A stretch of 64,000 bases of DNA, from positions 181,694-245,693 of the forward strand of contig SVIV01000002.1 of NCBI GenBank assembly GCA_015069325.1, given 5' to 3'. Positions within the stretch are counted from its first letter, which is position 1; the number at the start of each line of letters is the position of its first letter. A program made the translations under genes and the position numbers. Below the pieces are notes generated by a model that saw only the letters and a list, made by a program, of their open reading frames with translations, did not search any database and had not been told where the DNA came from. Shown here in pieces: positions 13,167-31,934 of this stretch. The stretch comes from Clostridiales bacterium. GTDB lineage: Bacteria; Bacillota; Clostridia; Christensenellales; UBA1242.

Positions 13167-13209
13167 AATCCACCCTTTAAAACAATTTTAATAAAAAAGC
13201 CCAAAAATG

Positions 13210-15331: not shown

Positions 15332-15489
15332 ATTTTCTCCTGATGATATTTTATATGTGCATATTTTAATCAGAGTTCAAAATAGTTTTTTCGCACAATC
15401 GCCATTCAAATTAACTTTCTTCTTTTAAACGGTTCAACAAACCTTGACAATTAAATATTAAATATGTTAAAATTTTTGCAGGAGAAAAT

Positions 15490-16791: not shown

Positions 16792-16852
16792 AAAATCAAA
16801 TTTATAACATAAAAAAAGATATTCGTAGTTGAATATCTTTTTGTTTTAAATT

Positions 16853-17989: not shown

Positions 17990-18382
17990 TATCTCACCTT
18001 TTTTTATGTTAAGATAATTTTAACACTTTCTACATATAAAATGCAAACAAAATTAACCTACCTTTAAAATTTCACATAAAATCTATTAACTTTTCAATAT
18101 TTTTGAATACAAATAAAAAAATCTACTAAGATCTGATAAAAAAGTCGCATCAACATTTCTCTTTGCAAATATATGCCTATATGATTTTGGATTGATTTTG
18201 CCATTAATTAATATCATCTAATTCAAATCTACCACTCTTGTTAAAAAAAACAAATTTATTTCATATTTTTTATGTCTTCTTGTGTATTTTAAAGCATTAA
18301 TCTTATTATTTAATTGTTATTCAACTTTGATATTGCAAAAATGTTAATACTATGATATATTCATATTATCAAGGAGAAAGCA

Positions 18383-18844
18383 ATGTCAAAGTATATTAAA
18401 AAACTATCTAATGAAGAAATTGAAATATTTTTTAACAATAATGGTTATAAACTTGCTAAAGATATTACGGATGATAATGATTTACCAATCGATTCAATAG
18501 AAAGAGATGATGATTCTATTTTTGTGCGTACACAACAAATGAATGACAATGAAATTGATTTGCACCTAAACTCTATTTCTAGCAAAAAATATGCCGGAAT
18601 CTTGGCATTAACTACACTTTTCTCAATGCACGCCCCATACTCAAGAGATATCCATTTGTTTCATATTACAGATTATTTTTTGTCAAAATTTTGCATTTTC
18701 CCAGAAGATAGTGAAATAGGTAAAACCTTACTTACTTCATATTTCAAATTTATGATAGATAAATTCCCAACATACAAAAAAGATTTAGAAGAATATGTTG
18801 AATCTCTCCCTGATGATGAATCTGAAAGTGAAAATACAATATAA
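18383..18844 (+). CDS. hypothetical protein with acidic C-terminus
   Basis: 153-aa ORF. RBS AAGGAGA. Terminator aaaaaccgcaatcatttgcggttttta follows. No motif recognised. Confidence 0.5.
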   Translation: MSKYIKKLSNEEIEIFFNNNGYKLAKDITDDNDLPIDSIERDDDSIFVRTQQMNDNEIDLHLNSISSKKYAGILALTTLFSMHAPYSRDIHLFHITDYFLSKFCIFPEDSEIGKTLLTSYFKFMIDKFPTYKKDLEEYVESLPDDESESENTI

Positions 18845-18896
18845 AAACCGCAATCATTTGCGGTTTTTATTTCACGTTTCATTAAATTGGCATTGA

Positions 18897-19529
18897 TTAT
18901 TTTATAATTTTATTGTTTTTGACATAATCCGAAACAGCTAAAAAATTTTCATCATAATTATATCTTTCTTGCCCATATGTTAACCACATCTCAGCCCAAG
19001 ACATACCTGTTGTAAGCAATTTTTTTACATCTTCATTCTTTGCAGTTTCATTCTGCTCTTGCATATTCAAATCTACACACCCCTGCTCATCATAAAGCTT
19101 TGCTTGAATATCGCATTCCAATTTATCGCAAAAATATGCAAACTGAGATTCTAGCGTTTGCCGTTTCTCAAATTCAAAAATCAACTCTCGAATTTCATCT
19201 GCGTTACATAATTTTTTGAAAATATCAACAACAGCTTGATGTCCAAGTTTAACTTTTTCCTCTTTCGTCTTTTGAAAACAAGTTATGTCCCCAATTATCG
19301 TTTCTTCCATTTCATGAACAGCAATCATTGTGAGTGTTTTTTTTATGTCCAAATCATATTTAAATTCTGCCCACATTGCAATCGCAAGCATTTGGACGCC
19401 ATAAATATGCTCTGCTACGCTTTCAACCCTATGTCTGTTTACATTCCAATTCTGCCAACCAGTTCTTACAAGATCTTTTAATTTATTGCATAATACATAA
19501 AATTCAATAACCCTTTTTTCTCTTTGCAT
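18897..19529 (-). CDS. HD-domain hydrolase (YfbR-like 5'-deoxynucleotidase family)
   Basis: 210 aa with RTGW...ESVAEHIYGV...HEMEETIIGDIT, the H..HD..D metal ligand pattern. Confidence 0.8.
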   Translation of the reverse strand: MQREKRVIEFYVLCNKLKDLVRTGWQNWNVNRHRVESVAEHIYGVQMLAIAMWAEFKYDLDIKKTLTMIAVHEMEETIIGDITCFQKTKEEKVKLGHQAVVDIFKKLCNADEIRELIFEFEKRQTLESQFAYFCDKLECDIQAKLYDEQGCVDLNMQEQNETAKNEDVKKLLTTGMSWAEMWLTYGQERYNYDENFLAVSDYVKNNKIIK

Positions 19530-19660
19530 TTGCTTCTCCTAATAATCTCATATTATCATATGGGCATTTTTTTTGCAATGAAAATAAACAAAAAATCAAC
19601 TAAATAGTGGACAACAAACAAATTTTATGATATACTGAATATCGTTAATAGGAGAAGATA

Positions 19661-21118
19661 ATGAACGATAAAGCAATAAGAACAAGATTTGCACCAAGCC
19701 CAACTGGATATATGCATATCGGCAACTTAAGGACAGCCTTATATTGTTATTTGTTTGCCAAACATTGCAATGGCAAATTTATTTTAAGAATTGAAGATAC
19801 AGACCAGAAAAGATATGTTGAAGGTGCAACTGATGTCATTTACAGCACATTAAAAAAATCAAAACTCTTTCACGATGAAGGGCCAGATATTGGCGGAAAT
19901 TACGGACCTTATGTTCAAACTGAAAGAATGGAAATTTATAAAAAGTATGCATTAGAATTAGTCGAAAAGGGTTTTGCCTACTATTGTTTCTGTGATAAAA
20001 GCAGTCACGAAGAAAAAGAAGGAGAAGCTTCTATTGGTTATGACCGCCACTGTAGAAATTTATCAGCAGAAGAAATTGAAAACAACTTAAAATTAAATAA
20101 GCCTTATGTAATCAGACAAAAAGTTCCACTTGATGGCACAACTTCTTTTTATGACGAAGTTTATGGAGAAATCACCGTTGAAAACTCAACATTAGATGAT
20201 CAAGTTTTATTGAAAAGCGATGGACTTCCAACCTATAACTTTGCCAATGTAATAGATGATCACTTAATGAATATTACTCATATCTTAAGGGGAAAAGAAT
20301 ATATTTCTTCCACACCAAAATATCAATTATTATATAATGCCTTCGGTTGGGAACCTCCAAAAACGGCTCACCTTTCAACAATTATGGGAAAGAATGCCGA
20401 CGGATCGGTTTCTAAACTTTCTAAAAGACACGGCTCAGTAAGTTTTGAACAATTAATTAAAGATGGCTATTTGGTCGAAGCAGTTATAAATTACATTACT
20501 TTACTCGGCTGGAGCCCTAGACAAGAAAGAGAAATTTTCTCTTTGGAAGAATTGATTGAAATTTTCGATTTAGAAGGTTTAGTAAAGACAAATGCAATAT
20601 TTAGTTATGAAAAACTTGCTTGGATGAATGGAGAATACATTAAAAAACTTGCCCCATCTGAGTTTGAAAAAATTTCATATGACTATGCAACAAATCTTCC
20701 ATCATTTATAAAAGATAAATGGACATATGTTGCTAAGTTGTTGCAGAATAGAATCAATGTTTTCACAGAAGTTGAAGATAAACTTAAGTTTTTATATAAT
20801 TATGGAGAATTTGACTTAGAACTTTTAATAAACAAGAAAAACAAAACAACCATTGAATCAAGCATTCAAGTTTTAAAAGACTCTATTGATTATTTAGGTT
20901 CTATTAATGATTGGACAGATTCAAATATAAACGAAGCAATCACCCAATATTCAAATCAATTAAACTTAAAATTAGGCTTTGTAATGTGGCCTTTGAGAAT
21001 CGCAGTTACAGGCGAAGTTGTTACTCCTGGTGGCTGTGGCGAAATGATGTATATCTTAGGCAAAGAAGAAACATTATCTAGGCTTCAACAAACATTAAAT
21101 AGAATTGAAAACAAATAA
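19661..21118 (+). CDS. gltX: glutamate--tRNA ligase
   Basis: RTRFAPSPTGYMHIGNLRTALY (HIGH) and KLSKRHG (KMSKS), class I GluRS. Confidence 0.95.
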   Translation: MNDKAIRTRFAPSPTGYMHIGNLRTALYCYLFAKHCNGKFILRIEDTDQKRYVEGATDVIYSTLKKSKLFHDEGPDIGGNYGPYVQTERMEIYKKYALELVEKGFAYYCFCDKSSHEEKEGEASIGYDRHCRNLSAEEIENNLKLNKPYVIRQKVPLDGTTSFYDEVYGEITVENSTLDDQVLLKSDGLPTYNFANVIDDHLMNITHILRGKEYISSTPKYQLLYNAFGWEPPKTAHLSTIMGKNADGSVSKLSKRHGSVSFEQLIKDGYLVEAVINYITLLGWSPRQEREIFSLEELIEIFDLEGLVKTNAIFSYEKLAWMNGEYIKKLAPSEFEKISYDYATNLPSFIKDKWTYVAKLLQNRINVFTEVEDKLKFLYNYGEFDLELLINKKNKTTIESSIQVLKDSIDYLGSINDWTDSNINEAITQYSNQLNLKLGFVMWPLRIAVTGEVVTPGGCGEMMYILGKEETLSRLQQTLNRIENK

Positions 21119-21146
21119 AAACCTTGCAAACCTGCAAGGTTTTTAT
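21117..21146 (+). terminator. rho-independent terminator after gltX
   Basis: Stem accttgca/tgcaaggt followed by a T-run. Confidence 0.8.
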
Positions 21147-21281
21147 TTGTTGCTTTGATATTTCTTTACTACACAATCTACACTCATTAAAACATTTAGT
21201 CGTCCAATAAGCACATAAATTTATTAAGTAACCAATCAATTTTTGACAAATAAACAATTAAATTCAATACAAACAACCTAG

Positions 21282-21734
21282 TTAATTGTAATAAGCCATT
21301 GTATCTACATTATTAATAAATATCTCAAGAGCTTTTTTGTGATAAGGCAAAGGCAATAGACTTTCAATATCTTTCATATCAATTTCATCAACAATATGTC
21401 CTTCTTCAGTAGGTTCACAAAGTTTTTCTCCCAAATCAACCAAATAAAAATTTGCAAGTGACTCAAGTGGCCATTTCCCTGCAGCCAGCCAAAAACAATC
21501 AATAGTAATAACAGGAGTTATCTTTTGTATTGAATAACCAGACTCTTCGATAAACTCTCTTTTTAAGCACTCTTCATGAGTTTCTCCTCGTTCTAGTCCA
21601 CCACCAATCAAAGAATACTGTTCATTTTTTTTAACCACTAAAAATTTATTATCTTTCATGCAAATACCAAAACAAGTTTCACGAAAATCGTATTTTGCAT
21701 CAACAATCTTTTCACCAATTATTATCTTTTTCAT
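21282..21734 (-). CDS. NUDIX hydrolase
   Basis: 150 aa. Nudix box GGGLERGETHEECLKREFIEESG. Confidence 0.85.
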   Translation of the reverse strand: MKKIIIGEKIVDAKYDFRETCFGICMKDNKFLVVKKNEQYSLIGGGLERGETHEECLKREFIEESGYSIQKITPVITIDCFWLAAGKWPLESLANFYLVDLGEKLCEPTEEGHIVDEIDMKDIESLLPLPYHKKALEIFINNVDTMAYYN

Positions 21735-21846
21735 AAATCCCTCTTGATCATTATAGCAAAACCAGGCTATTTATACAATTAAAATATTGACTTTCATATT
21801 AAAAAGCTTTACAATATATTGCATAATCACAAAAAGGATAAAAAAG

Positions 21847-22389
21847 ATGACAATATTTGAAACTGAAAGATTAATAATCAGACAATGGAAACCAAACGAT
21901 TATAAAGATCTATTTGAATTTGCAAGTAACCCACAAGTTACAAAATTTTTGCAATATCCTACTTATACAGATATACAAACAGCAAAAAATAGAATTAAAT
22001 TTTTGATTGAAAAATATAAAACACAGGAAATTACACAAGAATACGCAATTGAGTTAAAACAAAACAAAAAAGTAATTGGCTCACTCAATATAGGTTCATT
22101 TAAACCAACTGCTGGTGGAATCATTCGTTTTGGCTATACATTAAATCCCCTTTTTCAAGGCAATGGGTATATGACAGAAACAATTAATTCGTTTTTAAAA
22201 TATATTAAAAATAACAACATTGCAAAAAGAATTGAAGCAACACATGATATATTAAATGAAAAAAGTGGAAATGTTTTAAAACGTGTAGGAATGACATTAG
22301 AAGGAATCCTTAGAAAATCCGGAGAAAACAACCTTCACAGCAGATACGATGTCGCATTGTATTCAATATTATACGAAGAAATCAAATAA
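21847..22389 (+). CDS. GNAT N-acetyltransferase (RimJ/RimL-like)
   Basis: MTIFETERLIIRQW... typical RimJ/L N-terminus, plus QGNGYMTE in the acetyl-CoA loop. The track start at 21787 is an extension. Confidence 0.85.
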   Translation: MTIFETERLIIRQWKPNDYKDLFEFASNPQVTKFLQYPTYTDIQTAKNRIKFLIEKYKTQEITQEYAIELKQNKKVIGSLNIGSFKPTAGGIIRFGYTLNPLFQGNGYMTETINSFLKYIKNNNIAKRIEATHDILNEKSGNVLKRVGMTLEGILRKSGENNLHSRYDVALYSILYEEIK

Positions 22390-22419
22390 AAAATATAACT
22401 TGAAAAAGTTATATTTTTT

Positions 22420-23136
22420 TTATAATAATTCTATTTCTAAAATATCTTTAGTCGTGCTAGACATTGTTTTTAAAAATTTATATGCTTTAAAAGCTTCAAT
22501 TATATGACTATCCCAAATATCCCAACCACCATGTTCAGTTGAATGTGACAGCTTAAAATATTTTCCTTCTCGCATTTCTTGAATAAACATATCTGCAGTT
22601 ATGTCATCACACTGCATAACAATCATTTTAATAAGCTTTTTATAAATTTCTCTCGCGTCAAAAGAATCATTTACATCTGGTATATTTTTCACATCACACT
22701 CATAAAAACAACTCAAAATTTCTCTACGTTTTTTCAATAACCTTATGCAAGAACAAGCATCTTTAAATTCAAAAGCACACATAGCTAAATCTTCTAATGC
22801 TTCTGGAATGCCATTGATATCATATTCTCCTATATGCAACTGTTTATCAACCTTTTCAGCAATTTCTTTAAATAGCTGTTGTTTCTCTTGAATATCCTTG
22901 CAATCTTCTAAAATTTGAATTTCTTTCAATAATTGTTTTGTTTTTAATACATCGCTTTTTGCATATTTTGCATAAATACCACCAAAATACGCTTTAGAAA
23001 ACATTTCCATAAATTCAGACGGATATAATTCATCAAGTTCTTGCATCATCACCAAAATTTTTTCTTTTGACATTTTTGATACGTCTTCAGCAAGTTGCTC
23101 GAAATATCGTTTTTTCAATATACTTTCTTGTTTCAT
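22420..23136 (-). CDS. hypothetical protein
   Basis: 238-aa ORF starting 14 nt after asnA, probably co-transcribed. No motif recognised. Confidence 0.5.
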   Translation of the reverse strand: MKQESILKKRYFEQLAEDVSKMSKEKILVMMQELDELYPSEFMEMFSKAYFGGIYAKYAKSDVLKTKQLLKEIQILEDCKDIQEKQQLFKEIAEKVDKQLHIGEYDINGIPEALEDLAMCAFEFKDACSCIRLLKKRREILSCFYECDVKNIPDVNDSFDAREIYKKLIKMIVMQCDDITADMFIQEMREGKYFKLSHSTEHGGWDIWDSHIIEAFKAYKFLKTMSSTTKDILEIELL

Positions 23137-23149
23137 GCTATGCTTCCCC

Positions 23150-24145
23150 CTATAACAACTCTATCTGTAATTCTTCACACTGTTTGAGTGTGTCTTTATC
23201 CCAATAACTTGCTTGAACTTCTCCAATATGTGCACGACCAAGAAGCAACATACATAATCTGCTTTGACCTATTCCACCACCAATTGTAAGCGGCAACTCT
23301 TCTTTGACAATTGATTGATGATAAGCATATTCTAATCGTTCTTGCTTACCTGATTTTTCAAGTTGCTTAATTAAAGTATCTTTATCAACCCTAATTCCCA
23401 TACTTGAAATTTCAATAGCCATATCCAACACTTCGTGATAGAAAAGTAAATCTCCGTCTAAACTCCAATCATCATAGTCTGGCGCTCTCGTATCGTGCGG
23501 TTTGCCATCGCTTAAATCATCACCAATGCCAATAATAAATACAGTTTTATATTGTTTTGTAATCAAATATTCTCTTTCTTTATCTGTTTTATCTGGATAC
23601 AAATCCAAAAGTTCTTGACTTGTTATAAAGAAAACATCTTTGCATATTTCCACACCATCAAACCCTTTTGTCTTTAAAAATTCACTAGTGTCCGCAATTG
23701 CTTTAACAATCTTTTTGACAGTTTTCTTTAAAAAATCTACAGTTCTATCTTTTCTAACTATAACTTTTTCCCAATCCCATTGATCAACATAAATTGAATG
23801 AGTTTCATCCATTTTATCATCTCTTCGAATTGCAGTCATATCAGTGTATAAACCCTTATGAATAGGAAAATCATATTTTTTTAGTGCCATACGCTTCCAT
23901 TTAGCAAGAGATTGAACTATTTCGAGCTGTTTACCATCTTTCAAAATATCAAACGATACTTTACGCTCAACTCCACTTAAATCATCTTGCAAACCACTTT
24001 CTTTCGTTACAAGTAATGGTGCTGAAACTCTTGTTAAATCTAATGCTCCAGCCAATTTTCTTTCAAACTTATCTTTGATAAATTTTATATATTTTTGTTT
24101 ATCTAATATTCTTAAATGTGTATATTTTTCTTTAATAAATTTCAT
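23150..24145 (-). CDS. asnA: aspartate--ammonia ligase (asparagine synthetase A)
   Basis: 331 aa with LDLTRVSAPLLV..SGLQDDLSG.ERKVSF and a class-II aaRS-like core ending GGGIGQSRLCMLLL. Confidence 0.9.
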   Translation of the reverse strand: MKFIKEKYTHLRILDKQKYIKFIKDKFERKLAGALDLTRVSAPLLVTKESGLQDDLSGVERKVSFDILKDGKQLEIVQSLAKWKRMALKKYDFPIHKGLYTDMTAIRRDDKMDETHSIYVDQWDWEKVIVRKDRTVDFLKKTVKKIVKAIADTSEFLKTKGFDGVEICKDVFFITSQELLDLYPDKTDKEREYLITKQYKTVFIIGIGDDLSDGKPHDTRAPDYDDWSLDGDLLFYHEVLDMAIEISSMGIRVDKDTLIKQLEKSGKQERLEYAYHQSIVKEELPLTIGGGIGQSRLCMLLLGRAHIGEVQASYWDKDTLKQCEELQIELL

Positions 24146-24213
24146 AATTTTTCTCCTTCAACTTAATATTTTGGCAAATTTTGAAATTACAATATATTTA
24201 AGGAACATCAAAT

Positions 24214-24288
24214 TCACCTAAAAACTCTCCTTAAATATTTATTATTGTTATTATCATCTTCGCCCGCTACGGCGTTTGTCTTTTTCAT
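24214..24288 (-). promoter_or_regulatory. second Asn-rich mini-ORF in the asnA leader (MKKTNAVAGEDDNNNNKYLRRVFR)
   Basis: RBS AAAGGAG 5 nt before the ATG at 24288. Four consecutive Asn codons. Stop at 24216-24214. Confidence 0.4.
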
Positions 24289-24330
24289 AACATCTCCTTT
24301 TTTCAATTTTTTTTATAGTTAACAACACTA

Positions 24331-24429
24331 AGTAAAAATAGCACACCCTTTAGAGAGTGTGCTGTGATATGTGTTATTTTAATAACATCAATATAAACAA
24401 AACACTCTCTTGGATTTCAAGAGAGTGTT
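24331..24429 (-). promoter_or_regulatory. asnA leader attenuator: hairpin 24401-24429, terminator 24331-24362, alternative pairing between them
   Basis: Minus-sense AACACTCTCTTG-aaatc-CAAGAGAGTGTT followed by UUUUGUUUAU, then GCACAC-ucucuaaag-GGUGUGC followed by UAUUUUU. AGAGAGUGU of the first hairpin can instead pair with ACACUCUCU, which overlaps the terminator 5' arm. Confidence 0.55.
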
Positions 24430-24450
24430 GATTATCTATTTTAAATATGC

Positions 24451-24534
24451 TTAGATTTTTTCAACAACAAAAATGAAACCCATATTAAATGCGTTTAAAT
24501 TATTATTGTTGTTATTATTTATAACTCTAAACAT
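24451..24534 (-). promoter_or_regulatory. Asn-run leader peptide (MFRVINNNNNNNLNAFNMGFIFVVEKI) upstream of asnA
   Basis: Promoter TTGACA-N17-TGtgaTAAAAT at about 24565-24590. RBS AAAGGAGAAGG. Seven consecutive AAT/AAC codons plus two more Asn. Confidence 0.55.
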
Positions 24535-24666
24535 ACCTTCTCCTTTCATTTAGATGTCTCTATTTTATCACATAATTCACCATATGTCAATACATTTTGA
24601 AAAATTTTTAAATTCATAACAACCCAGTCAATCAATTACACATTTTAGAGGAGTTATAGTATCTTA

Positions 24667-25095
24667 TTATGGTTTATATTTTAAAATAAAGTGTGAATGA
24701 TTTTCTCCATCAACAATAAAACCATGCCTTTCGTAAAATCTTTTAGCTGGATTTGTTTTAAATGTGTCTAAATAAATTGGTTTATTAAGTTGATTTGCTT
24801 GTTTTATAAAATGTTGCATTATCTCAGAACCCAAACCATTGTTTCTAAAGTTTGGAAATAAACACAAAACATCAACAGTAATTTTTGTCTCTTCTTCTTT
24901 AAAATAAACAAACCCCGCGATCTCGTTTCCCACCATTATTTTAAACAAACTTGATTTTAATCTCTCCAAATGTTGTTCCATTATACTTTGATCAAACTGT
25001 CCAAAAAATTCTATAACATATTTTTCAAAAGCATCTTTTTGCATTTTTAAATATAAATCTCGATCTTTTTGTTCATATAATTTCAATTCAAACAT
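24667..25095 (-). CDS. GNAT N-acetyltransferase (array unit 6)
   Basis: 142 aa from the ATG at 25095 (MFELKLYEQ...). RNNGLGSEIM acetyl-CoA loop. The track start at 25179 translates the promoter region. Confidence 0.8.
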   Translation of the reverse strand: MFELKLYEQKDRDLYLKMQKDAFEKYVIEFFGQFDQSIMEQHLERLKSSLFKIMVGNEIAGFVYFKEEETKITVDVLCLFPNFRNNGLGSEIMQHFIKQANQLNKPIYLDTFKTNPAKRFYERHGFIVDGENHSHFILKYKP

Positions 25096-25117
25096 ATTTT
25101 TATCCCTTAATAATTTC

Positions 25118-25170
25118 ATTATACCACACAAATAAAAAAATGTATACACTTTGAATGCAAAATGTATACA
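25118..25170 (-). promoter_or_regulatory. unit-6 promoter with twin TGTATACA palindromes
   Basis: TGTATACA at 25141-48 and 25163-70, 22 bp apart. Extended -10 TGtGgTATAAT with TATAAT at 25118-23. Confidence 0.65.
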
Positions 25171-25184
25171 TTTTATCAAAAAAA

Positions 25185-25435
25185 TTAAATTTTACTTTTC
25201 CTACTCTGTCTATCCACATTCAAAACCACCCCTATTGCACTCATAAAAACAAGGAGCGCAGTTGAACCTGCAGAGTTTTGGGGCCCCCGCAAATCGTGAG
25301 AATTGCGGGGAAAAGGAAAAACGGAGCGTCAAATTTTGTGCAAGCAAAGCGAGCACAACTCACAAAGCGAGTGTTTTGACGCAGGTAGTGGCAAACCCGT
25401 TGGTGGTATGCTACCTGTTACCACGAGTTATTGCA
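25185..25435 (-). repeat. decoy copy A of the ftsW 3' tail (with structured insert)
   Basis: Encodes ..PPTGLPLP | insert | AGSTALLVFMSAIGVVLNVDRQSRKSKI* and aligns to ftsW 29534-29680. An in-frame TGA lies inside the insert. Confidence 0.85.
25272..25382 (+). ncRNA. structured insert, copy A (111 nt)
   Basis: Hairpin CCCCGCAA/TTGCGGGG, outer stem GCGTCAAA/TTTGACGC, inner hairpin TTGTGC/GCACAA, purine linker GGGGAAAAGGAAAAAC. The strand call is tentative and rests on G-T pairs. Confidence 0.45.
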
Positions 25436-25446
25436 CTATGGATTTC

Positions 25447-25965
25447 TTATTTAATTTTTTCATCTTCAAGTGGTTCACATTCAATTAATTTACTTTCATA
25501 AGCCAAATAATTAAACAATTGCATAAAAACCTGTTCAACCTTAGGCACCCTGCTACCACTGTTGCAAAAACAAATTGCGCAACCCATATGTGGATAACTC
25601 CAACTTTCTTTATCTTCATTTTTTATGAATTTTATTGTAAAAGCATCTTCAGTTTTTATAATATTTAAAACATTCGCTTCATCTTCTGGCCAATCTTCAC
25701 TAATATAAGATATTATGTTCCCTTGTAATACTGGACGATATTTGTCATCATTCTTCCCTACAGCATTAAATAATTGATTAAAAACACCATACGTTATTTT
25801 ATCGCTTTTATCTATTTCAAAAATTTTATTTTCTTTATGATTCTCTGGCAACCAATATAAATCCAAATTGCCACCAACTGTCATTACAAATGACTTACCA
25901 TTTTTATCGGTAATTTTTACATCATAATATCCTTCTTTATTGTTTCTTAGTTGTTTTGTAATCAC
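25447..25965 (-). CDS. hypothetical protein (array unit 5)
   Basis: 172-aa ORF with a GTG start after RBS AGGAGAA. Own promoter TTTACA-N17-TGgTAATAT. The stop abuts decoy tail A. Confidence 0.55.
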   Translation of the reverse strand: MITKQLRNNKEGYYDVKITDKNGKSFVMTVGGNLDLYWLPENHKENKIFEIDKSDKITYGVFNQLFNAVGKNDDKYRPVLQGNIISYISEDWPEDEANVLNIIKTEDAFTIKFIKNEDKESWSYPHMGCAICFCNSGSRVPKVEQVFMQLFNYLAYESKLIECEPLEDEKIK

Positions 25966-25981
25966 TATTTTCTCCTAAAAA

Positions 25982-26057
25982 ATATTACCACATTTTCAAA
26001 CAATTGTAAATAGAATGAAATAAAAAATGTATACACTTTGATTACAATATGTATACA
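25982..26057 (-). promoter_or_regulatory. unit-5 promoter region with twin TGTATACA palindromes
   Basis: TGTATACA at 26028-35 and 26050-57, 22 bp apart. Divergent -10 TAATAT at 25982-87. Confidence 0.6.
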
Positions 26058-26070
26058 TTTCATTAAAAAA

Positions 26071-26327
26071 TTAAATTTTACTCTCTCTACTCTGTCTATC
26101 CACATTCAGCACCACCCCTATCGCACTCATAAAAACAAGGAGCGCAGTTGAACCTGCAGAGTTTTGGGGCCCACGCAAATCGTGAGATTTGTGGGGAAAA
26201 GGAAAAACAGAGCGTCAAATTTTGTGCAAGCAGAGCGAGCACAAATCACAAAGCGAGTGTTTTGACGCAGGTAGTTGCAAACCTGTTGGTGGGATTGAGC
26301 CTCTTAACATCAGTTATTGTATTATAA
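26071..26327 (-). repeat. decoy copy B of the ftsW 3' tail (with structured insert)
   Basis: Same architecture as copy A. Insert at 26158-26268. Confidence 0.85.
26158..26268 (+). ncRNA. structured insert, copy B (111 nt)
   Basis: Same helices as copy A. The P1 3' arm reads ATTTGTGGGG, which makes a G-T pair on the plus strand. Confidence 0.45.
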
Positions 26328-26846
26328 AGTTACCCAATACCTTTCTAAATTTATTCCCTCTCTTTCAAGTGTTCTAGTATCCTCATATTGTCCACCATTT
26401 GCTAAAATACATTTTCTTGATGCAATGTTGGTGTCTTTACAAGACAATAGCACTTTATCAATTCCCAACTCTTTGCATTTCTTTAACCCAAGAGCAAGTA
26501 ATTTTTTACCATAACCTTTCCTTCTTTCATCAACAGCAACACTATCTCCACAATGCCCGCCATAATTCAATAAGAAATCACTTAATTTATGTCTAATTTG
26601 AAACATTCCTATTAACTTGTTATCAGACTTCCTTATACAAATGTATTGCGTTGAAGGAACATATCCTGCAGGTAAATTTTTTCCCTCTCTCCAATCATTA
26701 TTTTTTTGTAGCCATGTTTCAAAATCATCTTTTCTTAAATCTCCACAGCCATCCATACTAGAACCCGATTCAATCATATCTTTTTTATATCTTTCTACTT
26801 GCTCTTTATATTCAGCTGTTGGTATTATTAACTCTAATTCATCCAT
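26322..26846 (-). CDS. GNAT acetyltransferase (COG3981-like; array unit 4)
   Basis: 174 aa with VAVDERRKGYGKKLLALGLKKCKELG, the acetyl-CoA binding motif. The stop codon lies inside the conserved repeat boundary ttattgtattataa. Confidence 0.8.
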   Translation of the reverse strand: MDELELIIPTAEYKEQVERYKKDMIESGSSMDGCGDLRKDDFETWLQKNNDWREGKNLPAGYVPSTQYICIRKSDNKLIGMFQIRHKLSDFLLNYGGHCGDSVAVDERRKGYGKKLLALGLKKCKELGIDKVLLSCKDTNIASRKCILANGGQYEDTRTLEREGINLERYWVTL

Positions 26847-26875
26847 AAATTACACCCCACGCTATCACTATATCA

Positions 26876-26928
26876 ATTATACCACACAAATAAAAAAATG
26901 TATACACTTTTCTTACAATTTGTATACA
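26876..26928 (-). promoter_or_regulatory. unit-4 promoter with twin TGTATACA palindromes
   Basis: TGTATACA at 26899-906 and 26921-28, 22 bp apart. TGtGgTATAAT with TATAAT at 26876-81. Confidence 0.65.
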
Positions 26929-26942
26929 TTTCTATAAAAATT

Positions 26943-27130
26943 TTATTTGAGATTCACTCCACTCATTTCTCTCGGTCGGAATGACAGTGTTTTACTTTGT
27001 TTATCTACGTTGAGAACAACTCCGATGGCAGACATAAAGACAAGCAAACTTGTTGACCCTGCAGAGATGAACAGAAGTAGTAATCCTGTTGGTGGGATTG
27101 AGCCCCTTAACATCAGTTATTGTATTATAA
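26943..27130 (-). repeat. decoy copy C of the ftsW 3' tail (no insert; intact alternative C-terminus)
   Basis: Reads in frame as IPPTGLLLLFISAGSTSLLVFMSAIGVVLNVDKQSKTLSFRPREMSGVNLK*. It lacks the ~110-nt insert. Confidence 0.85.
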
Positions 27131-27140
27131 AATTTCACAC

Positions 27141-27170
27141 AAAAAAAGAGCAAAATTTATTGCTCTTTTT
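27141..27170 (-). terminator. terminator of the PnuC unit
   Basis: Stem agagcaa/ttgctct with A and T runs. Nearly identical to the hairpin at 29064-29091. Overlaps the pnuC stop. Confidence 0.7.
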
Positions 27171-27864
27171 GCTTATATTGTTTTTTCTCTTCTAACTTCC
27201 AATGAATCAGACCATAGGTATCATTGGTTAAAAAAACAAAAAACGTAACAACGGTTGGCAAATAACCAATTCCGCTATTCACAACAACAATCGACCATAA
27301 AACGATTAAAATAATATCATTAAGAATAAAAGCTAAAGCATAATAGCTACATCTTCTAAGCATTAAATATGAAGCAACTAAAGATGTAATTAAAGACAAT
27401 GTGCTTATAATCAACTCACTAGTGTTTAATGCTTTTAATAAAAAATAAAATCCAATTGTTGCAAAAACTGTTGCAACAGACAAATATGCATATTCCTTTC
27501 CTTTTATCTTATTAACTTCAACAACTTGTGTATTTTCCTTATTTTTATTTCTCAACCAAGTAATTATTGAAAAGAAATAAATAGGAATCATTAATACAAT
27601 ATAAATTATTGCTTCACCATAATAACGTTGAACTATTGATATAATGGCATATAAAACACAATATATAATATTAAGAAATGGCGAAACAATTAAACCCTTA
27701 GCCAAAGTAAAAACAGCAATAATGCCAACTAATGAAGTAATTAACGAAAAAGCATTTTTATCTAAACTAAAAACAAAACACAAAACAATTGCCAACAAAC
27801 TAACAAATAAAAATAAAATTTCAAACAAATTCCAATTCTTAAAAAATTTTTTAAGCATAAGCAT
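27157..27864 (-). CDS. pnuC: nicotinamide riboside transporter PnuC family (array unit 3)
   Basis: 235 aa, 7-8 TM helices. N-terminal WNLFEILFL...LAKG...YGEAI..., a PnuC-like pattern. Confidence 0.75.
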   Translation of the reverse strand: MLMLKKFFKNWNLFEILFLFVSLLAIVLCFVFSLDKNAFSLITSLVGIIAVFTLAKGLIVSPFLNIIYCVLYAIISIVQRYYGEAIIYIVLMIPIYFFSIITWLRNKNKENTQVVEVNKIKGKEYAYLSVATVFATIGFYFLLKALNTSELIISTLSLITSLVASYLMLRRCSYYALAFILNDIILIVLWSIVVVNSGIGYLPTVVTFFVFLTNDTYGLIHWKLEEKKQYKQKEQ

Positions 27865-27878
27865 TCTCCAATGAGTTA

Positions 27879-27931
27879 ATTATACAATAAAAATAACAAA
27901 ATGTATACAAATTGCATGCAAAATGTATACA
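27879..27931 (-). promoter_or_regulatory. unit-3 promoter with twin TGTATACA palindromes
   Basis: TGTATACA at 27902-09 and 27924-31, 22 bp apart, flanking a TTGCATGCAA centre. TATAAT at 27879-84. Confidence 0.65.
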
Positions 27932-27947
27932 CTTTAACAAAAAAAAT

Positions 27948-28198
27948 TTAAATACTACTTTTTCTACTCTGCCTATCTACATTAAGCACAACCCCTATTG
28001 CACTCATGAATACTAGCAAACTTGTTGAGCCTGCATTTTGGCCCCCGCAAATCGTGAGATTTGTGGGGAAAAGGAAAAACAGAGCGTCAAATTTTGTGCA
28101 AGCAGAGCGAGCACAAATCACAAAGCGAGAGTTTTGACGCAGGTAGTGGCAATCCTGTTGGTGGGATTGACCCATTAACATCAGTTATTGTATTATAA
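27948..28198 (-). repeat. decoy copy D of the ftsW 3' tail (with structured insert)
   Basis: GSIPPTGLPLP and AGSTSLLVFMSAIGVVLNVDRQSRKSSI* are separated by the insert at 28035-28140. The upstream part is in a different frame. Confidence 0.85.
28035..28140 (+). ncRNA. structured insert, copy D (106 nt)
   Basis: P1 CCCCGCAAAT/ATTTGTGGGG (one G-T pair), P2 GCGTCAAA/TTTGACGC, P3 TTGTGC/GCACAA. Confidence 0.45.
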
Positions 28199-28219
28199 AA
28201 AAGCACAAAAAAAGAGTCT

Positions 28220-28699
28220 TTACAACTCTTTTTCCTCACTTTCTTGAATAACGTCTTGCTTGTGCAAGACCTCCAAACATTCTTGTTTAAACTTAGCAAT
28301 TTCCTCTTTATCTTCACCAAAATAAAGTTCACCTGCTATATCTAATAATTCATCTATAGTCATTAAATTATCATCATCTTTATAATAATTTATACCACTT
28401 CGTCTATTGGTATAATCTTGAGCAAGCAAACATGCCTCATCATATCTTGTCACACCATGATTTTTGCTTAAATCAGTATTCCTCAATGCCTTAATAAAAT
28501 ATTTTGGTTCTTTATATGGATCAAAAACATATTCACCAGTTTTACTTCTAGATAAATGTATTCGTGCACTCTCACTCAATCTTGTCATAAAAGTTTGAAA
28601 TGCATTTTTATTGTCGATAACAAATTCAATATGATAAAAATGATGACCTACACACTCATTACCACAAAAAACTCTAATTTCCTTAAATCGTTTTTTCAT
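28220..28699 (-). CDS. hypothetical protein (array unit 2)
   Basis: 159 aa from the ATG at 28699 (MKKRFKEIRVF...), preceded by RBS TAGGAGAAAG. The track start at 28780 translates the promoter. No motif recognised. Confidence 0.55.
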   Translation of the reverse strand: MKKRFKEIRVFCGNECVGHHFYHIEFVIDNKNAFQTFMTRLSESARIHLSRSKTGEYVFDPYKEPKYFIKALRNTDLSKNHGVTRYDEACLLAQDYTNRRSGINYYKDDDNLMTIDELLDIAGELYFGEDKEEIAKFKQECLEVLHKQDVIQESEEKEL

Positions 28700-28720
28700 A
28701 CATCTTTCTCCTATGCTTGC

Positions 28721-28773
28721 ATTATACCACACAAACAAAAAAATGTATACACATTGATTATAATTTGTATACA
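28721..28773 (-). promoter_or_regulatory. unit-2 promoter with twin TGTATACA palindromes
   Basis: TGTATACA at 28744-51 and 28766-73, 22 bp apart. TGtGgTATAAT with TATAAT at 28721-26. Confidence 0.65.
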
Positions 28774-28791
28774 TTTGCATTAAAATTTTTT

Positions 28792-29050
28792 TTAGATTTT
28801 ACTCTTCCTACTCTGTCTATCTATATTTAGAACAATCCCTATCGCACTCATAAAAACTAGCAAAGAAGTTGAGCCGGCATTCTGGGGCACCCCGCAAGTT
28901 GCAGGAGCGAAACTTGTGGGGATAAGGAAAAACCAAGCGTCAATTTTTGTGCGACCAACAGCGAGCACAAACTTAAAAGCGAGTGTTTTGACGCAGGTAG
29001 TGGCAAGCATGTTGGTGGAATTGAACCTCTTAACATCAGTTATTGTATTA
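28792..29050 (-). repeat. decoy copy E of the ftsW 3' tail (with structured insert)
   Basis: Tail AGSTSLLVFMSAIGIVLNIDRQSRKSKI*. Insert at 28879-28994. This is the most diverged copy. Confidence 0.85.
28879..28994 (+). ncRNA. structured insert, copy E (116 nt)
   Basis: P1 CCCCGCAAGTT/AACTTGTGGGG carries a compensatory A-T to G-C change relative to copies B and D. The loops differ but the stems are kept. Confidence 0.45.
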
Positions 29051-29063
29051 CAAATTTTTGCAT

Positions 29064-29091
29064 TAAAAAAAGAGCAAATTTATTGCTCTTT
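29064..29091 (-). terminator. terminator of the LytTR unit
   Basis: Stem agagcaa/ttgctct with A and T runs. Confidence 0.7.
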
Positions 29092-29093
29092 AC

Positions 29094-29444
29094 CTAAAAT
29101 TCTCTTTCATGTTCTCGATTTAATTTGGGGATGACATTTCTTTCAAAATCCACCACAGATAATTTTTTTAGTTGCATACCATTTCTAAATTTAACAGTAA
29201 CAAAAGACCCATTACTTAAATATGAATTCATTTCATTTGGATTTATATAAACAACGCAATTGTGTTTATAGCAAAATACTTTAGGCAACTTGTTTAATAA
29301 GTTTTCCATATCGCCCCATTGCAATGTAACGGTTTCTCCATCGATAAAATGTGTATCACATTTAAAACCATCTTCAACTATATACAAAATATCTCTTGAA
29401 TTAAATTCAATTCTTTTCCATGATCCAAATGGCGTAGCTTGCAT
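29094..29444 (-). CDS. stand-alone LytTR-type DNA-binding domain protein (array unit 1)
   Basis: 116 aa. RIEFNSRDILYIVEDGFKCDTHFIDGETVTLQWGDMENLLNKLPKVFCYKHNCVVYINPNEM fits the LytTR pattern (..I.yie......i.t.......sl..le..Lp..F.r.hrs.iVN...i). No receiver domain. Confidence 0.65.
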   Translation of the reverse strand: MQATPFGSWKRIEFNSRDILYIVEDGFKCDTHFIDGETVTLQWGDMENLLNKLPKVFCYKHNCVVYINPNEMNSYLSNGSFVTVKFRNGMQLKKLSVVDFERNVIPKLNREHEREF

Positions 29445-29464
29445 ATTGTTTCTCCTACTTTTTC

Positions 29465-29518
29465 ATTATACCACAAAAATAAAAAAAATGTATACACTTT
29501 GATTACGATTTGTATACA
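29465..29518 (-). promoter_or_regulatory. unit-1 promoter with twin TGTATACA palindromes, directly after the ftsW stop
   Basis: TGTATACA at 29489-96 and 29511-18, 22 bp apart. TGtGgTATAAT with TATAAT at 29465-70. Confidence 0.65.
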
Positions 29519-29533
29519 TTTATATTGAAAATA

Positions 29534-30649
29534 TTAAATTCTACCTTTTCGAGATTGTCTATCAACATTCAACACCACCCCTATCGCCGACATAAAAACA
29601 AGCAAACTTGTACTGCCGGCACTTATGAAAGGCAACGGCAGTCCTGTTGGTGGGATCGAACCTGTTACAACAGCGACATTAAGAAGGGTTTGCACTGCAA
29701 TAACAAATGCGACTCCGCAAGAAAGCATACTGCCAAAGCGGTCTTTTGCATTAAGACCTATTTTTATAATTTGCAAACATAAAAATAAGACAAACGAAAG
29801 ATATAAAACCACTCCCACAAATCCTATTTCTTCTCCCATAATTGAAAGAATAAAATCTGATTCAGCAAATGGAAGAAATAAATATTTTTGACGAGAGTTG
29901 AAAAGCCCAACACCAAACCATCCACCATCACCAAGAGAATAAAGCGATTGAATAAGCTGAAAACCTTCACCCTGCGGAGACGCCCAAGGATCAATAAACG
30001 CTAACAATCTTTTCATTCGATATGGCTCTGCAATAATTAGTAGTGGCACTGCAAGACCTGCAGGAATTGAAAACATAAGCGTATGCTTTTTGCTCATTCC
30101 ACCTATAATAAGCATACACAGCAAAACAAAACATATGCACATAGTTACACTCATACTAGGCTCCAACATAATCAGCAAAGCCATAACACCGCCTACCACA
30201 AGCACAGGAAATAACCCTTTTAAAGTTTTTACCTTATGATTATTATCTGCCAAATATGATGCTGTAAAAATCACCAATGCAAATTTTGCCACTTCTGATG
30301 GTTGAATTGAAAAGCCTAAAAGAGAAATCCATCTTTTTGCACCATATATTTCAACGCCCAAACCTGGAATAAAAACAAGGGATAAAAGCACACACGTTCC
30401 AACTACAATCCACCACTTAAGCTTTGCTAAGATATGATAATCCACCATTGAAAAGAAAATTAATCCACATATGCCCAAAATAAAACCAAAAAGTTGTTTA
30501 AAAAGAAAAAATTCGCTATTTCCATAATGATGCTGAGCAGAATAAAAACTTGCACTGTAAACCATAACACAGCCAAACAGTGCTAAGATTGCCACTATTG
30601 AAAAAATTAAAAGATATTCACCCTTGAAATTCAATTTTTTCAGTTTCAC
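29534..30649 (-). CDS. ftsW: SEDS-family peptidoglycan polymerase FtsW/SpoVE
   Basis: 371 aa, about 10 TM helices. C-terminal GSIPPTGLPLPFISAGSTSLLVFMSAIGVVLNVDRQ matches the SEDS signature. Located after murD in the dcw cluster. Confidence 0.9.
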   Translation of the reverse strand: MKLKKLNFKGEYLLIFSIVAILALFGCVMVYSASFYSAQHHYGNSEFFLFKQLFGFILGICGLIFFSMVDYHILAKLKWWIVVGTCVLLSLVFIPGLGVEIYGAKRWISLLGFSIQPSEVAKFALVIFTASYLADNNHKVKTLKGLFPVLVVGGVMALLIMLEPSMSVTMCICFVLLCMLIIGGMSKKHTLMFSIPAGLAVPLLIIAEPYRMKRLLAFIDPWASPQGEGFQLIQSLYSLGDGGWFGVGLFNSRQKYLFLPFAESDFILSIMGEEIGFVGVVLYLSFVLFLCLQIIKIGLNAKDRFGSMLSCGVAFVIAVQTLLNVAVVTGSIPPTGLPLPFISAGSTSLLVFMSAIGVVLNVDRQSRKGRI

Positions 30650-31934
30650 CCAAAATTATCTCCTTAAACACCTGACCGCGCACCGCATAATTATCAAACT
30701 CATCAAAACTCGCACAAGAAGGCGACAACAAAATCTTTTGACCTTCTTTTGCATTATCACGTGCATATCGCACCGCTTCTTTCATAGTCACAAAAAATTT
30801 TGGACTATAGCCATATTTAACAGCACAATCAAAAATCTCTTGCCCACAAGCCCCAAAACACAAAACAGTTTCAAAAGAATACCCTTTGTCAAAAATTTCG
30901 TCAAATTCAAAATCTTTGTTTTGCCCACCAAGAAGCAAAACCAATCCACGCTCTCCCACCGACTCAATTGCACCAAGCGTAGATGCAATATTCGTCGCCT
31001 TTGAATCATCAAAAACTATAGCTCCATTTATTTCCCCCAAATATTCAAGCCTATGAGCAGGAGCCTTAAACGACATAATTGCTTCTTTAATCACGTTAGG
31101 TTTTACTTTATTTATTACAGCCAAAGCCACAGCAGCCATTACATTTTCGATGTTCTTTTCTCCAAATAGCGGGATATCTAAAAGAGAAATTATCTTTGTT
31201 TTATTGTGATAAATCGCGTTATTTTTAATAAAAATACCCTTTTTTAGCATATTTTTTGAAAAATAAAGAACATTTTTGCTAATTATTAAATTTCTAGTAT
31301 TTTTATCATCATAATTAAGCACCACTCTTTGTTTGCGTTTCCCTGAAATTATCTTCTTTTTCACACGCACATACTCGTCAAAACTTTCGTGCCTATCTAA
31401 ATGATCAGGGGCAAGATTCAACACTGCACAAATATCTGCTTGAAAAATTGAAGATAACTCTAATTGCAAATTACTCACTTCACAAACAATATTGCTTACC
31501 TTTGTAGAGTTTTTCACAATCGAGGAAAACGGCAGACCGATATTTCCACAAACAAAAGTTTCGCGGCCCGCCTTTTTAAAAATCTCACCAACAAGAGAAG
31601 TAACTGTCGTTTTTCCGTTCGTGCCAGTAATGCCAATAATCTTGCCTTTATTAAAAAGATACGCCAAATCCAGCTCTGAAATCACCTTGGTTTTTGAAAG
31701 AATAAAGTAAGACAATATTTTATTTCCTAAAACTTTTACCCCCGGACTTACAACAACTATGTCATATTTTTTTGACATAGGACTGCTTTCAAAAGGAAAA
31801 AACGCGCCAAACCTATTCTCATCATCATACACACTTACACAAGCACCTTCTTCGTGTAAAAGCTTTGACGCCGACTGACCACTTACTCCCATACCATACA
31901 CAAGAACCTTCTTTCCCCTAAAATTTATTTTCAT
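30618..31934 (-). CDS. murD: UDP-N-acetylmuramoylalanine--D-glutamate ligase
   Basis: 438 aa with GITGTNGKTT P-loop and an N-terminal Rossmann GMGVSG. Located between mraY and ftsW. Confidence 0.9.
   Translation of the reverse strand: MKINFRGKKVLVYGMGVSGQSASKLLHEEGACVSVYDDENRFGAFFPFESSPMSKKYDIVVVSPGVKVLGNKILSYFILSKTKVISELDLAYLFNKGKIIGITGTNGKTTVTSLVGEIFKKAGRETFVCGNIGLPFSSIVKNSTKVSNIVCEVSNLQLELSSIFQADICAVLNLAPDHLDRHESFDEYVRVKKKIISGKRKQRVVLNYDDKNTRNLIISKNVLYFSKNMLKKGIFIKNNAIYHNKTKIISLLDIPLFGEKNIENVMAAVALAVINKVKPNVIKEAIMSFKAPAHRLEYLGEINGAIVFDDSKATNIASTLGAIESVGERGLVLLLGGQNKDFEFDEIFDKGYSFETVLCFGACGQEIFDCAVKYGYSPKFFVTMKEAVRYARDNAKEGQKILLSPSCASFDEFDNYAVRGQVFKEIILGETEKIEFQG

Follow-up and report, generated by a model that had tools for sequence, protein, structure and literature searches.

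Introduction

In bacteria that are naturally transformable, homologous recombination can exchange the cassettes that lie between conserved flanking genes; such cassettes are called minimal mobile elements. Tandem accretion at the 3′ end of a gene is described for elements related to ICESt1 and ICESt3 at fda of Streptococcus thermophilus, with decayed cis-mobilizable elements (CIMEs) among the accreted units (PMC5704250). In Prochlorococcus, tycheposons form islands seeded at transfer RNA (tRNA) or transfer-messenger RNA (tmRNA) genes (bioRxiv 10.1101/2020.12.28.424599) and the ssrA islands of Dehalococcoides are apparently a similar case (PMC3146451). Here we analyse a 64,000-nucleotide stretch of DNA from a Clostridiales bacterium (the window), in which the 3′ end of ftsW, the gene of an essential peptidoglycan polymerase, recurs downstream of the gene in an array of single-gene cassettes. 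An earlier note had singled out one of these repeats, copy C, as an intact alternative FtsW C-terminus. We propose that copy C is, rather probably, an attachment-site-like direct repeat, left behind as single-gene cassettes were inserted one after another at the ftsW 3′ end. Limited keyword searching of the open-access literature gave no description of ftsW as a target or of ftsW-linked cassette arrays, and a cassette-accretion system at ftsW appears to be undescribed.

Results

Repeat finding, alignment and a profile search revealed six copies of the last ~130 nt of ftsW in the window, namely the tail of the resident gene and five decoys, A to E (Table 1). The repeated part comprises the last ~38 codons of ftsW, which encode the conserved PPTG-LPLPF-ISxGxTS loop and the last transmembrane helix. 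Read in the direction of ftsW, a unit runs from the tail and its stop codon through a promoter and one cargo gene, often followed by a terminator, to a non-coding flank, TTTATAATACAATAACTGATGTTAAG, and the next tail. The six tails, five of which have the same flank upstream, bound six promoter-bearing single-gene units, and the cargo genes are mutually unrelated. The array is no assembly artefact, because it is identical in independent metagenome assemblies: contig L092 of the Joint Genome Institute (JGI) matches it at 100% over 20,001 nt, and JGI contigs L093 and L094 match at 100% over the parts that they cover (L numbers denote the genome loci or contigs compared; P numbers denote public protein entries, which are FtsW fragments and decoy open reading frames (ORFs)).

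On the minus strand, positions 26943-27131 translate as FIIQ, a stop, LMLRGSIPPTGLLLLFISAGSTSLLVFMSAIGVVLNVDKQSKTLSFRPREMSGVNLK and a second stop, which is identical to the peptide that the earlier note had read in one frame from copy C. The 56-aa ORF at 26943-27113 is GenBank entry MBE7074094.1, a hypothetical protein of a Clostridiales bacterium metagenome-assembled genome (MAG). Alignment of the six tails also agrees with copy C being free of an insert and in possession of its F-I-S codons: in decoys A, B, D and E the F-I codons are gone and an insert of ~103 nt separates the LPLP codons from the SAGS codons, and copy C has neither defect. In other respects 'intact' said too much, as an in-frame TAA lies upstream in the flank, ahead of the ATG, the LPLP motif reads LLLL, and the C-terminal extension derives from an insertion.

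Over the 37 codons shared with the resident tail, copy C differs at 32 of 111 nt, distributed 6/6/20 over codon positions 1/2/3. The proportions of synonymous (pS) and nonsynonymous (pN) differences are 0.71 and 0.14, respectively (pN/pS 0.19; the median across pairs of tails is ~0.2). Despite this saturation of synonymous sites, only 3 of the 37 residues have changed, and the last transmembrane helix, STSLLVFMSAIGVVLNV, is the same in both tails. Copy C thus bears the signature of long purifying selection on the protein in the past, which supports the earlier reading of a genuine ftsW 3′ end.

The three residue changes include both prolines of LPLPF. Both are leucine in copy C, in contrast to the (L/V/I)PLP of the resident tail and the majority of other copies. 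Almost all C-terminal FtsW fragments retain xPLP(F/L) (219 fragments and decoys; LHLPF and LSLPL are rare exceptions), and substitutions at the LPLP prolines are found mainly in short decoy ORFs (copy C, P0008, P0029, P0052, P0066, P0073 and P0086). The LPF proline aligns with the FtsW of P. aeruginosa, of which the structure is solved. With two Pro-to-Leu changes in a conserved loop motif, copy C is decaying. Of the features expected from a functional FtsW C-terminus, it keeps the last transmembrane helix under purifying selection; the loop motif PxTG-x-P/T-LPF-xSxG has given way to LLLLF, and there is no continuity with a SEDS body, the in-frame TAA and the pnuC terminator lying upstream. 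The TAA of the flank is in the reading frame of the tail, and therefore no decoy is joined to upstream sequence.

The earlier note had also taken the longer extension of copy C for a natural FtsW C-terminus, which the comparison contradicts. What lengthens the reading frame is an insertion of ~30-44 nt, placed between ...QSK and the stop codon and promoter that normally follow. The extra segment has a counterpart in one other silent decoy only, L087/P0002 (...RMLSFRPSEASGDNLKKQFLK), with 86% identity over 42 nt; outside this segment, the tail of L087/P0002 is 78% identical to copy C. The extension is absent from the 66 genome loci and the other 217 FtsW fragments and decoys inspected, a statement that applies to these 66 loci and 219 fragments and decoys rather than to all FtsW sequences. 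The predicted fold of the extra segment was no better than that of shuffled sequences, and the idea that the extension forms a structured element was dropped.

When the ORF of copy C was used as the query of a protein search, which covers proteins of a length similar to the query, there were 104 matches, nearly all of them ORFs of 35-98 aa of the form ML(R/T)GSIPPTGLPLPFISAGSTSLLVFMSAIGVVLNVD(R/K)QS... with variable ends. This pattern, up to (R/K)QS, is preserved in over 100 decoy ORFs of the public data, and the 37 residues that they encode are nearly invariant. Several of the matches are annotated as 'FtsW/RodA/SpoVE family' fragments. MAG entries of 35-60 aa that are called 'FtsW/RodA/SpoVE family cell cycle protein' and are silent decoy tails include P0025, P0026, P0049, P0050, P0062, P0066, P0071, P0077, P0082, P0086, P0090 and P0099.

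It is conceivable that the 56-aa ORF of copy C, and similar ORFs of 45-60 aa, are expressed as small membrane proteins with a single helix, mimics of the FtsW end. The window-type family has a conserved ATG in its flank and a TATAAT lies 10 nt upstream, which, together with the conservation at the protein level, would suit such a product. We nevertheless consider it very unlikely, as there is no ribosome-binding site, the block subfamily of contig L088 has no start codon at that place, four of the five local copies are broken by the insert, and use as an FtsW end explains the conservation.

Copy C is 64-72% identical to all other tails of its own genome. Its identity to the in-use ftsW tail of the L083-86 lineage is 86% (over 103 nt) to 88% (over the 3′ 90 nt), and to the in-use tail of L001 83%. 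Copy C is closer to the in-use tail of another lineage than to the local tails, and is therefore not from local duplication. This bears out the earlier suggestions that it came from the ftsW end of another lineage and that the units did not all derive from one local duplication. The sequence type of copy C is thus one that serves as a real ftsW end elsewhere, in the L083-86 lineage. Copy C is an ordinary member of the repeat family, yet it is the clearest evidence for independent, foreign origins of the tails.

Tandem duplication of the ftsW end together with the downstream region, followed by divergence and gene replacement, could in principle also have produced six tails. Repeats within the array range from 64 to 94% in identity, and decoys A and B, at 90-94%, make at least one recent local duplication or conversion plausible. 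As an account of the whole array we find it extremely unlikely, given that copy C is nearest to a foreign tail, synonymous sites are saturated, cassettes and blocks of the same types occur in unrelated genomes and at other positions, and the cargo genes are unrelated to each other.

With the window as reference, identity was determined separately for the 21 variable residues of the tail, STSLLVFMSAIGVVLNVDRQS, and for the 300 FtsW residues that precede them. In L083-86, L089, L095 and L101, all of which have cassettes, the FtsW body is 49-52% identical to that of the window, whereas the tail is 95-100% identical. The reverse was seen in L003-L048, where the body is 73-79% identical and the tail only 43-67% (typically GTSVMVFMAGIGICLNVLRQS); none of these has a cassette array except L035. 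Hybrid tails, host-type in their 5′ half and mobile-type in their 3′ half, are carried by L055, L103 and P0125, and the middle decoy of L081 is built in the same way. As expected of a target gene that is restored upon insertion, the resident ORF is intact, the identities of body and tail disagree, and hybrid tails exist.

Cassettes recur between genomes in the same way as tails. Cargo 2 of the window has ~90% DNA identity to the first cassette of L089 and 80-89% protein identity to L103, L104 and L105. The tail before cargo 2, with the 3′ terminus ...QSRKSK, is the in-use end of ftsW in L089 and L103-105, and is the silent decoy E, with the same terminus, in the window. L089 and L090 are 100% identical from CAATAAC of the flank through the tail, the promoter and the next genes, and their upstream cassettes are unrelated. 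At the level of genome comparison, these observations establish tail replacement, exchange of cassettes between genomes and positions, and decay of displaced tails, and that the tail adjoining ftsW becomes the real end of FtsW.

Hybrid tails would likewise be expected if the decoys were a reservoir of silent cassettes that varies the FtsW C-terminus by gene conversion, in the style of pilS/pilE or vls. The C-terminal extensions of FtsW are indeed hypervariable in this clade, and the decoys are silent and lack the 5′ part of the gene. However, variation among decoys is mostly synonymous, with little at the protein level in the 37 nearly invariant residues; no decoy occurs without an associated cargo gene, which has a promoter of its own; the insert disrupts many of the decoys; and the part that varies, a short cytoplasmic tail, has no evident selective agent acting on it. 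A silent reservoir is thus highly improbable.

Serial cassette insertion, as we envisage it, would proceed as follows. New units would enter next to ftsW. The tail of the ftsW-adjacent cassette, as the genome comparison shows, is fused in frame and serves as the C-terminus of FtsW. The next insertion would push the older tail downstream behind the stop codon of the flank, where it would be silent and free to decay. Copy C would be such a displaced tail, which later gained two Pro-to-Leu changes and a small insertion that lengthened its reading frame. The most likely catalyst would be a site-specific recombinase encoded elsewhere in the genome; its candidate targets are the beginning of the tail with the conserved flank before it and/or a core in mid-tail around TTTATG...GGxGTxGT. 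RecA recombination between the repeats may add secondary shuffling.

The flank is 97.5% conserved (22 nt; 11 blocks from different contigs), compared with 58% at third codon positions of the tail and 66% for the 12 nt upstream; across the 11 blocks, tail codon positions 1/2/3 are conserved to 0.85/0.88/0.58. The flank is more conserved than any adjacent coding position, which argues for a putative role in protein binding or recombination. Judged by eye only, the flank and the TGTATACA repeat resemble Xer/dif sites too weakly to support such a claim.

Small insertions occupy the same place in decoy tails of L076 (81 nt; 120-200, minus strand) and L088 (~28 nt, unrelated; 10270-10320), between TTT(T)A and TGAGTGC/TGATGC of the F-M-S codons. 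These insertions, several independent hybrids and the junction of an antisense insert (see below) all fall within ~25 nt around TTTATG...GGxGTxGT. The shared insertion point in L076 and L088 hints at a hot spot of cleavage or crossover.

It is possible that the same structure arose without a dedicated enzyme, by RecA-dependent homologous recombination, whether of circles inserted in the Campbell manner or of linear DNA taken up by transformation and exchanged by double crossover. Islands of homology would then be the stretch of ftsW that codes for conserved motifs, the repeated blocks and the downstream core genes. Repeats in one array are 64-94% identical, and the perfectly conserved 26-nt flank and ~20-nt tail start could act as minimal pairing segments. 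On the other hand, the same blocks are present in genomes with ~50% identical FtsW bodies, and the only stretches of identity between host and mobile tails there are short, which makes them poor substrates for RecA. Under neutral drift the non-coding flank and the synonymous sites would be expected to diverge at an equal rate, whereas the flank is far better conserved (97.5% against 58%). The cargo units are trimmed tightly to one ORF, and independent hybrids, the L076 and L088 insertions and the antisense-insert junction break in the same ~25 nt. The blocks have spread over hosts too divergent for efficient homologous pairing, which favours a site-specific recombinase. We regard RecA recombination by itself as a rather unlikely origin of the arrays; a site-specific route is somewhat more likely than RecA alone, and is unproven.

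Several observations weigh against serial insertion by a recombinase, and the first of them speak for RecA. No array has a recombinase family in its annotated surroundings (20-kb neighbourhoods by gene table, and the ORFs of the window by Pfam), and regular-expression scans of 1.31 Mb of related loci found no ORF with tyrosine- or serine-recombinase motifs. The 433-aa orphan ORF at 15490-16791, considered in the recombinase search, has no homologue beside other arrays. Junction positions vary, lying in the flank at CAATAAC (L089 versus L090), in mid-tail between AIG and VV (L055, L081, L103 and P0125), or after the stop (L102), a spread that fits homologous recombination more readily than a single fixed crossover; the comparison of crossover positions involves few independent junction events, among which primary and secondary ones are not separable. 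No circular cassette contigs occur among the assembled contigs, and no copy of the block was found in phage and plasmid collections (blastn) or in IMG/VR (pattern search). Despite its array, L102 has a host-type FtsW tail with a long basic extension (8780-9030), and the resident tail of L035 looks host-typical. In the window, the array ends in a cassette that no decoy follows, and the 103-nt insert is left unaccounted for. In view of these points, the site-specific insertion with tail replacement inferred in the earlier note stands as far as the replacement is concerned, given the discrepancy between body and tail, and is not borne out in its site specificity, with no recombinase found and variable junctions.

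The first cassette of L102 begins immediately after the stop codon with the hairpin/promoter CGCATACGATTTCGTATGCG. A phage or plasmid carrier of the block was rejected, as blastn gave no match and the pattern matches in IMG/VR were unrelated repeat proteins.

The promoter module found after copy C (Table 1) also follows the resident tail and decoys A, B (whose own -10 differs), D and E. A promoter-like TATACA-17-TATAAT precedes five of the six units, and TTTACA-17-TAATAT the sixth. The inverted repeat ATGTATACA-N14-TGTATACAT, which overlaps the -35, is located at 29488-29519, 28743-28774, 26898-26929, 26027-26058 and 25140-25171, and also at ~27899-27930, and looks like a putative shared operator of the cassette promoters. 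A 22-nt variant of it (ATGTATGCGATTTCGTATACAT) is present in L002, L055, L081 and L102.

The ~103-nt insert folds into two hairpins joined by GUUUUUCCUUUUCCCC (z = -4.7), with a few compensatory pairs; within 1.2-1.3 Mb of related DNA, all its occurrences lie in ftsW tails. There are two forms of the insert. The first is in sense orientation between LPLP and SAGS (the window, L001, L002 and L076). The second is antisense, stands after VDRQ and is followed by a second FMSAIGVVLNVDRQSRKSKI segment; it is present in L083-86, where it lies within the in-use ftsW and supplies its C-terminal extension (sites in L083 at 8868-8975 and 10128-10235). Copy C and many other decoys are without the insert. 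An Rfam scan of 20000-31000 (E up to 1) returned terminator look-alikes only and no match for the insert or copy C, and the insert pattern is absent from IMG/VR. Confinement to ftsW tails led us to reject a genome-wide miniature inverted-repeat transposable element, and a guide or bridge-type RNA was rejected for want of any match or complement of at least 9 nt to the block or the ftsW end.

We searched for FtsW in one genome per species and obtained 66 loci, all from uncultured Clostridia or Christensenellales-like MAGs. Extra tails are present in L001, L002 and L035, and a hybrid tail with one cassette in L055. Further arrays lie between ftsW and murA on contigs of the matches to the copy C ORF. 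L083-86 have one APH cassette between ftsW and murA; L089, L095 and L101-L103 have cargo and decoy tails; and L104 and L105 have the same first cassette with only a decayed tail remnant, the terminal decoy being almost unrecognisable. In L088 (GCA_017650795.1, JAGCEE010000115.1; 1-11450) the entire 11.4-kb contig is an array of at least 11-12 cassettes; its block subfamily differs, and has only the tail and the flank core CAATAAC in common with the blocks of the window. Target-gene 3′ ends flank each unit as direct repeats in the window, L001, L002, L081, L083, L088, L089, L101, L102 and L103. Insert-free decoys like copy C are common in relatives. Empty sites also occur there, with ftsW followed directly by murA or unrelated DNA.

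The L088 subfamily has an unrelated promoter and a hairpin (AGCAGAGT..ACTCTGCT). Its cargo includes two PnuC and two NUDIX proteins, a GNAT protein, an opposite-strand ASCH gene and an Apyc1-like metallo-beta-lactamase-fold protein. Also among the cargo is a second class-I aminoacyl-tRNA synthetase (tRNA-synt_1b); it has a long leader and may be a spare copy of the antibiotic-resistance type. Assemblies often break at arrays, giving many contigs of 0.5-3 kb.

Table 1. Positions of the repeated tails, cassettes and flanking core genes in the window
Feature	Position	Strand	Remarks
Resident ftsW	29534-30649	minus	From the ORF list; downstream of murF, ddl, murE, mraY and murD on the same strand
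Resident in-use tail	29534-29667	minus	Last ~134 nt of ftsW; homologous to the five decoys
Cargo 1, 116 aa, no family	29094-29444	minus	Terminator 29069-29091
Decoy E	28793-29057	minus	Insert ~28890-28994
Cargo 2, 159 aa, no family	28220-28699	minus	Same gene directly beside ftsW in L089, L103, L104 and L105
Decoy D	27948-28199	minus	Insert 28040-28140
Cargo 3, PnuC nicotinamide riboside transporter	27157-27864	minus	PF04973, E = 1.5e-28; TIGR01528; terminator 27143-27170
Copy C decoy tail	26943-27134	minus	nhmmer E = 7.6e-41; between the pnuC cassette and the GNAT cassette
Copy C 5′ non-coding flank, TTTATAATACAATAACTGATGTTAA	27107-27131	minus	Exact 22-mer 27107-27128; holds in-frame TAA 27117-27119 and ATG 27111-27113
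Copy C ftsW-homologous codons, GSIPPTGLLLLFISAGSTSLLVFMSAIGVVLNVDKQSK	26990-27104	minus	72% nt identity to resident tail
Extra segment making the extension of copy C, TLSFRPREMSGVNLK	26946-26989	minus	Stop codon 26943-26945; absent from the other five tails of the window
Promoter of the cassette after copy C	26876-26929	minus	Inverted repeat ATGTATACA-N14-TGTATACAT (26898-26929) overlapping TATACA-17-TATAAT
Cargo 4, GNAT acetyltransferase	26322-26846	minus	Downstream of copy C; Pfam scan
Decoy B	26071-26331	minus	Insert 26166-26268
Cargo 5, 172 aa, no family	25447-25965	minus	Pfam and NCBIfam scans
Decoy A	25185-25445	minus	Insert 25280-25382
Cargo 6, GNAT acetyltransferase	24667-25095	minus	Last cassette, no decoy after it
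murA	14048-15331	minus	Usual immediate neighbour of ftsW in related genomes; 14 kb off here

Resident FtsW ends in ...PFISAGSTSLLVFMSAIGVVLNVDRQSRKGRI, followed by the stop codon, and can be aligned end to end with the solved FtsW structures 8p1u and 8bh1 (E ~1e-60). Relatives have murA, ftsQ, ftsA and ftsZ directly or closely 3′ of ftsW; in the window the same genes lie at 10.7-15.3 kb, 14 kb away. As to the cargo of the window as defence genes, PADLOC gave no match.

Beyond the recognisable array, 15332-24660 contains a CitMHS transporter, an HD hydrolase, gltX, NUDIX and GNAT genes, asnA and orphan ORFs, and may be older accreted cargo whose repeats were lost. The 433-aa orphan ORF mentioned above, on the plus strand, has no match in Pfam, NCBIfam or PADLOC. 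Upstream of asnA (23150-24145) there are two short leader ORFs rich in Asn codons on the minus strand, at ~24451-24534 and ~24214-24288, which encode MFRVINNNNNNNLNAFNMGFIFVVEKI and MKKTNAVAGEDDNNNNKYLRRVFR, respectively, each ending in a stop codon; terminator-like hairpins follow at 24401-24429 and 24340-24363. The arrangement, which is also kept in L001 (~13168-13250), looks like ribosome-mediated attenuation of asparagine synthetase A.

Discussion

If serial cassette insertion at ftsW is the correct reading, the C-terminus of FtsW is itself horizontally mobile: the loop motif and the last transmembrane helix of an essential peptidoglycan polymerase would be routinely swapped between bacteria as distant as families, as a side effect of the traffic in cargo genes. 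Such swapping would amount to a natural experiment on the extent of sequence exchange that a SEDS protein can bear. The number of accessory genes at the site reaches a dozen or more, and they include those for GNAT, NUDIX and PnuC proteins, an APH-type kinase, a spare aminoacyl-tRNA synthetase, metallo-beta-lactamase-fold enzymes and methyltransferases. Its hosts are abundant uncultured Clostridia of gut and rumen, in which the biology of mobile elements is almost unknown. The arrays would explain many MAG fragments of 35-100 aa that are assigned to the 'FtsW/RodA/SpoVE family', as well as the assembly breaks at these loci, and the conserved flank and the mid-tail hot region offer a concrete target for finding the enzyme.

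Comparison with integrons suggests a more far-reaching interpretation. Like integrons, the ftsW arrays are long, ordered and mostly co-oriented series of single-ORF cassettes separated by a recombination-site-like repeat; the same cassette occurs at differing positions and in differing genomes, and growth apparently takes place at the end next to a fixed site. One may therefore ask if the arrays between ftsW and murA are an undescribed integron-like platform for gene capture in gut Clostridia, with a recombinase acting in trans, replacement tails, and the insert as an accessory component, for example a folded recombination site or regulatory RNA, a proposal that we put forward tentatively and hold to be doubtful. 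Unlike in integrons, there is no intI or attI beside the array, where the genes of the dcw (division and cell wall) cluster lie upstream and cargo, asnA or murA downstream; the repeats are copies of coding sequence rather than attC hairpins, the only hairpin element being the optional 103-nt insert; the cassettes have their own promoters instead of a common cassette promoter (Pc); and the fixed site is inside an essential gene.

With minimal mobile elements the arrays have in common that cargo lies between two core genes, here ftsW and murA, and that exchange is possible without an element-encoded enzyme. To our knowledge, minimal mobile elements have no internal repeats of the end of the flanking gene and form no multi-unit arrays.

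Accretion at the 3′ end of a gene brings the arrays close to the CIMEs of S. thermophilus (PMC5704250). In both, the target gene is kept intact and the incoming element supplies its new end, older units are pushed away, and integrase-less units persist between attachment-site-like repeats. The ftsW system differs in that no integrase-bearing element is found in more than 15 arrays, that its units are single genes of 0.6-1.3 kb with their own promoters in arrays of at least 11-12 units, and that its target is ftsW, with ~130 nt of coding sequence plus a conserved flank as the repeat.

As in tycheposons and tRNA islands, partial 3′ ends of the target gene are scattered through the cargo island, and successive integrations push earlier ones inward; the cargo, as in tycheposons, consists of adaptive metabolic genes. 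Tycheposons, unlike the ftsW arrays, carry tyrosine recombinases and target RNA genes. The ftsW arrays have no linked recombinase and use a protein-coding gene of an essential membrane enzyme as their target, and what is swapped is a functional segment of a protein, the loop motif together with the transmembrane helix.

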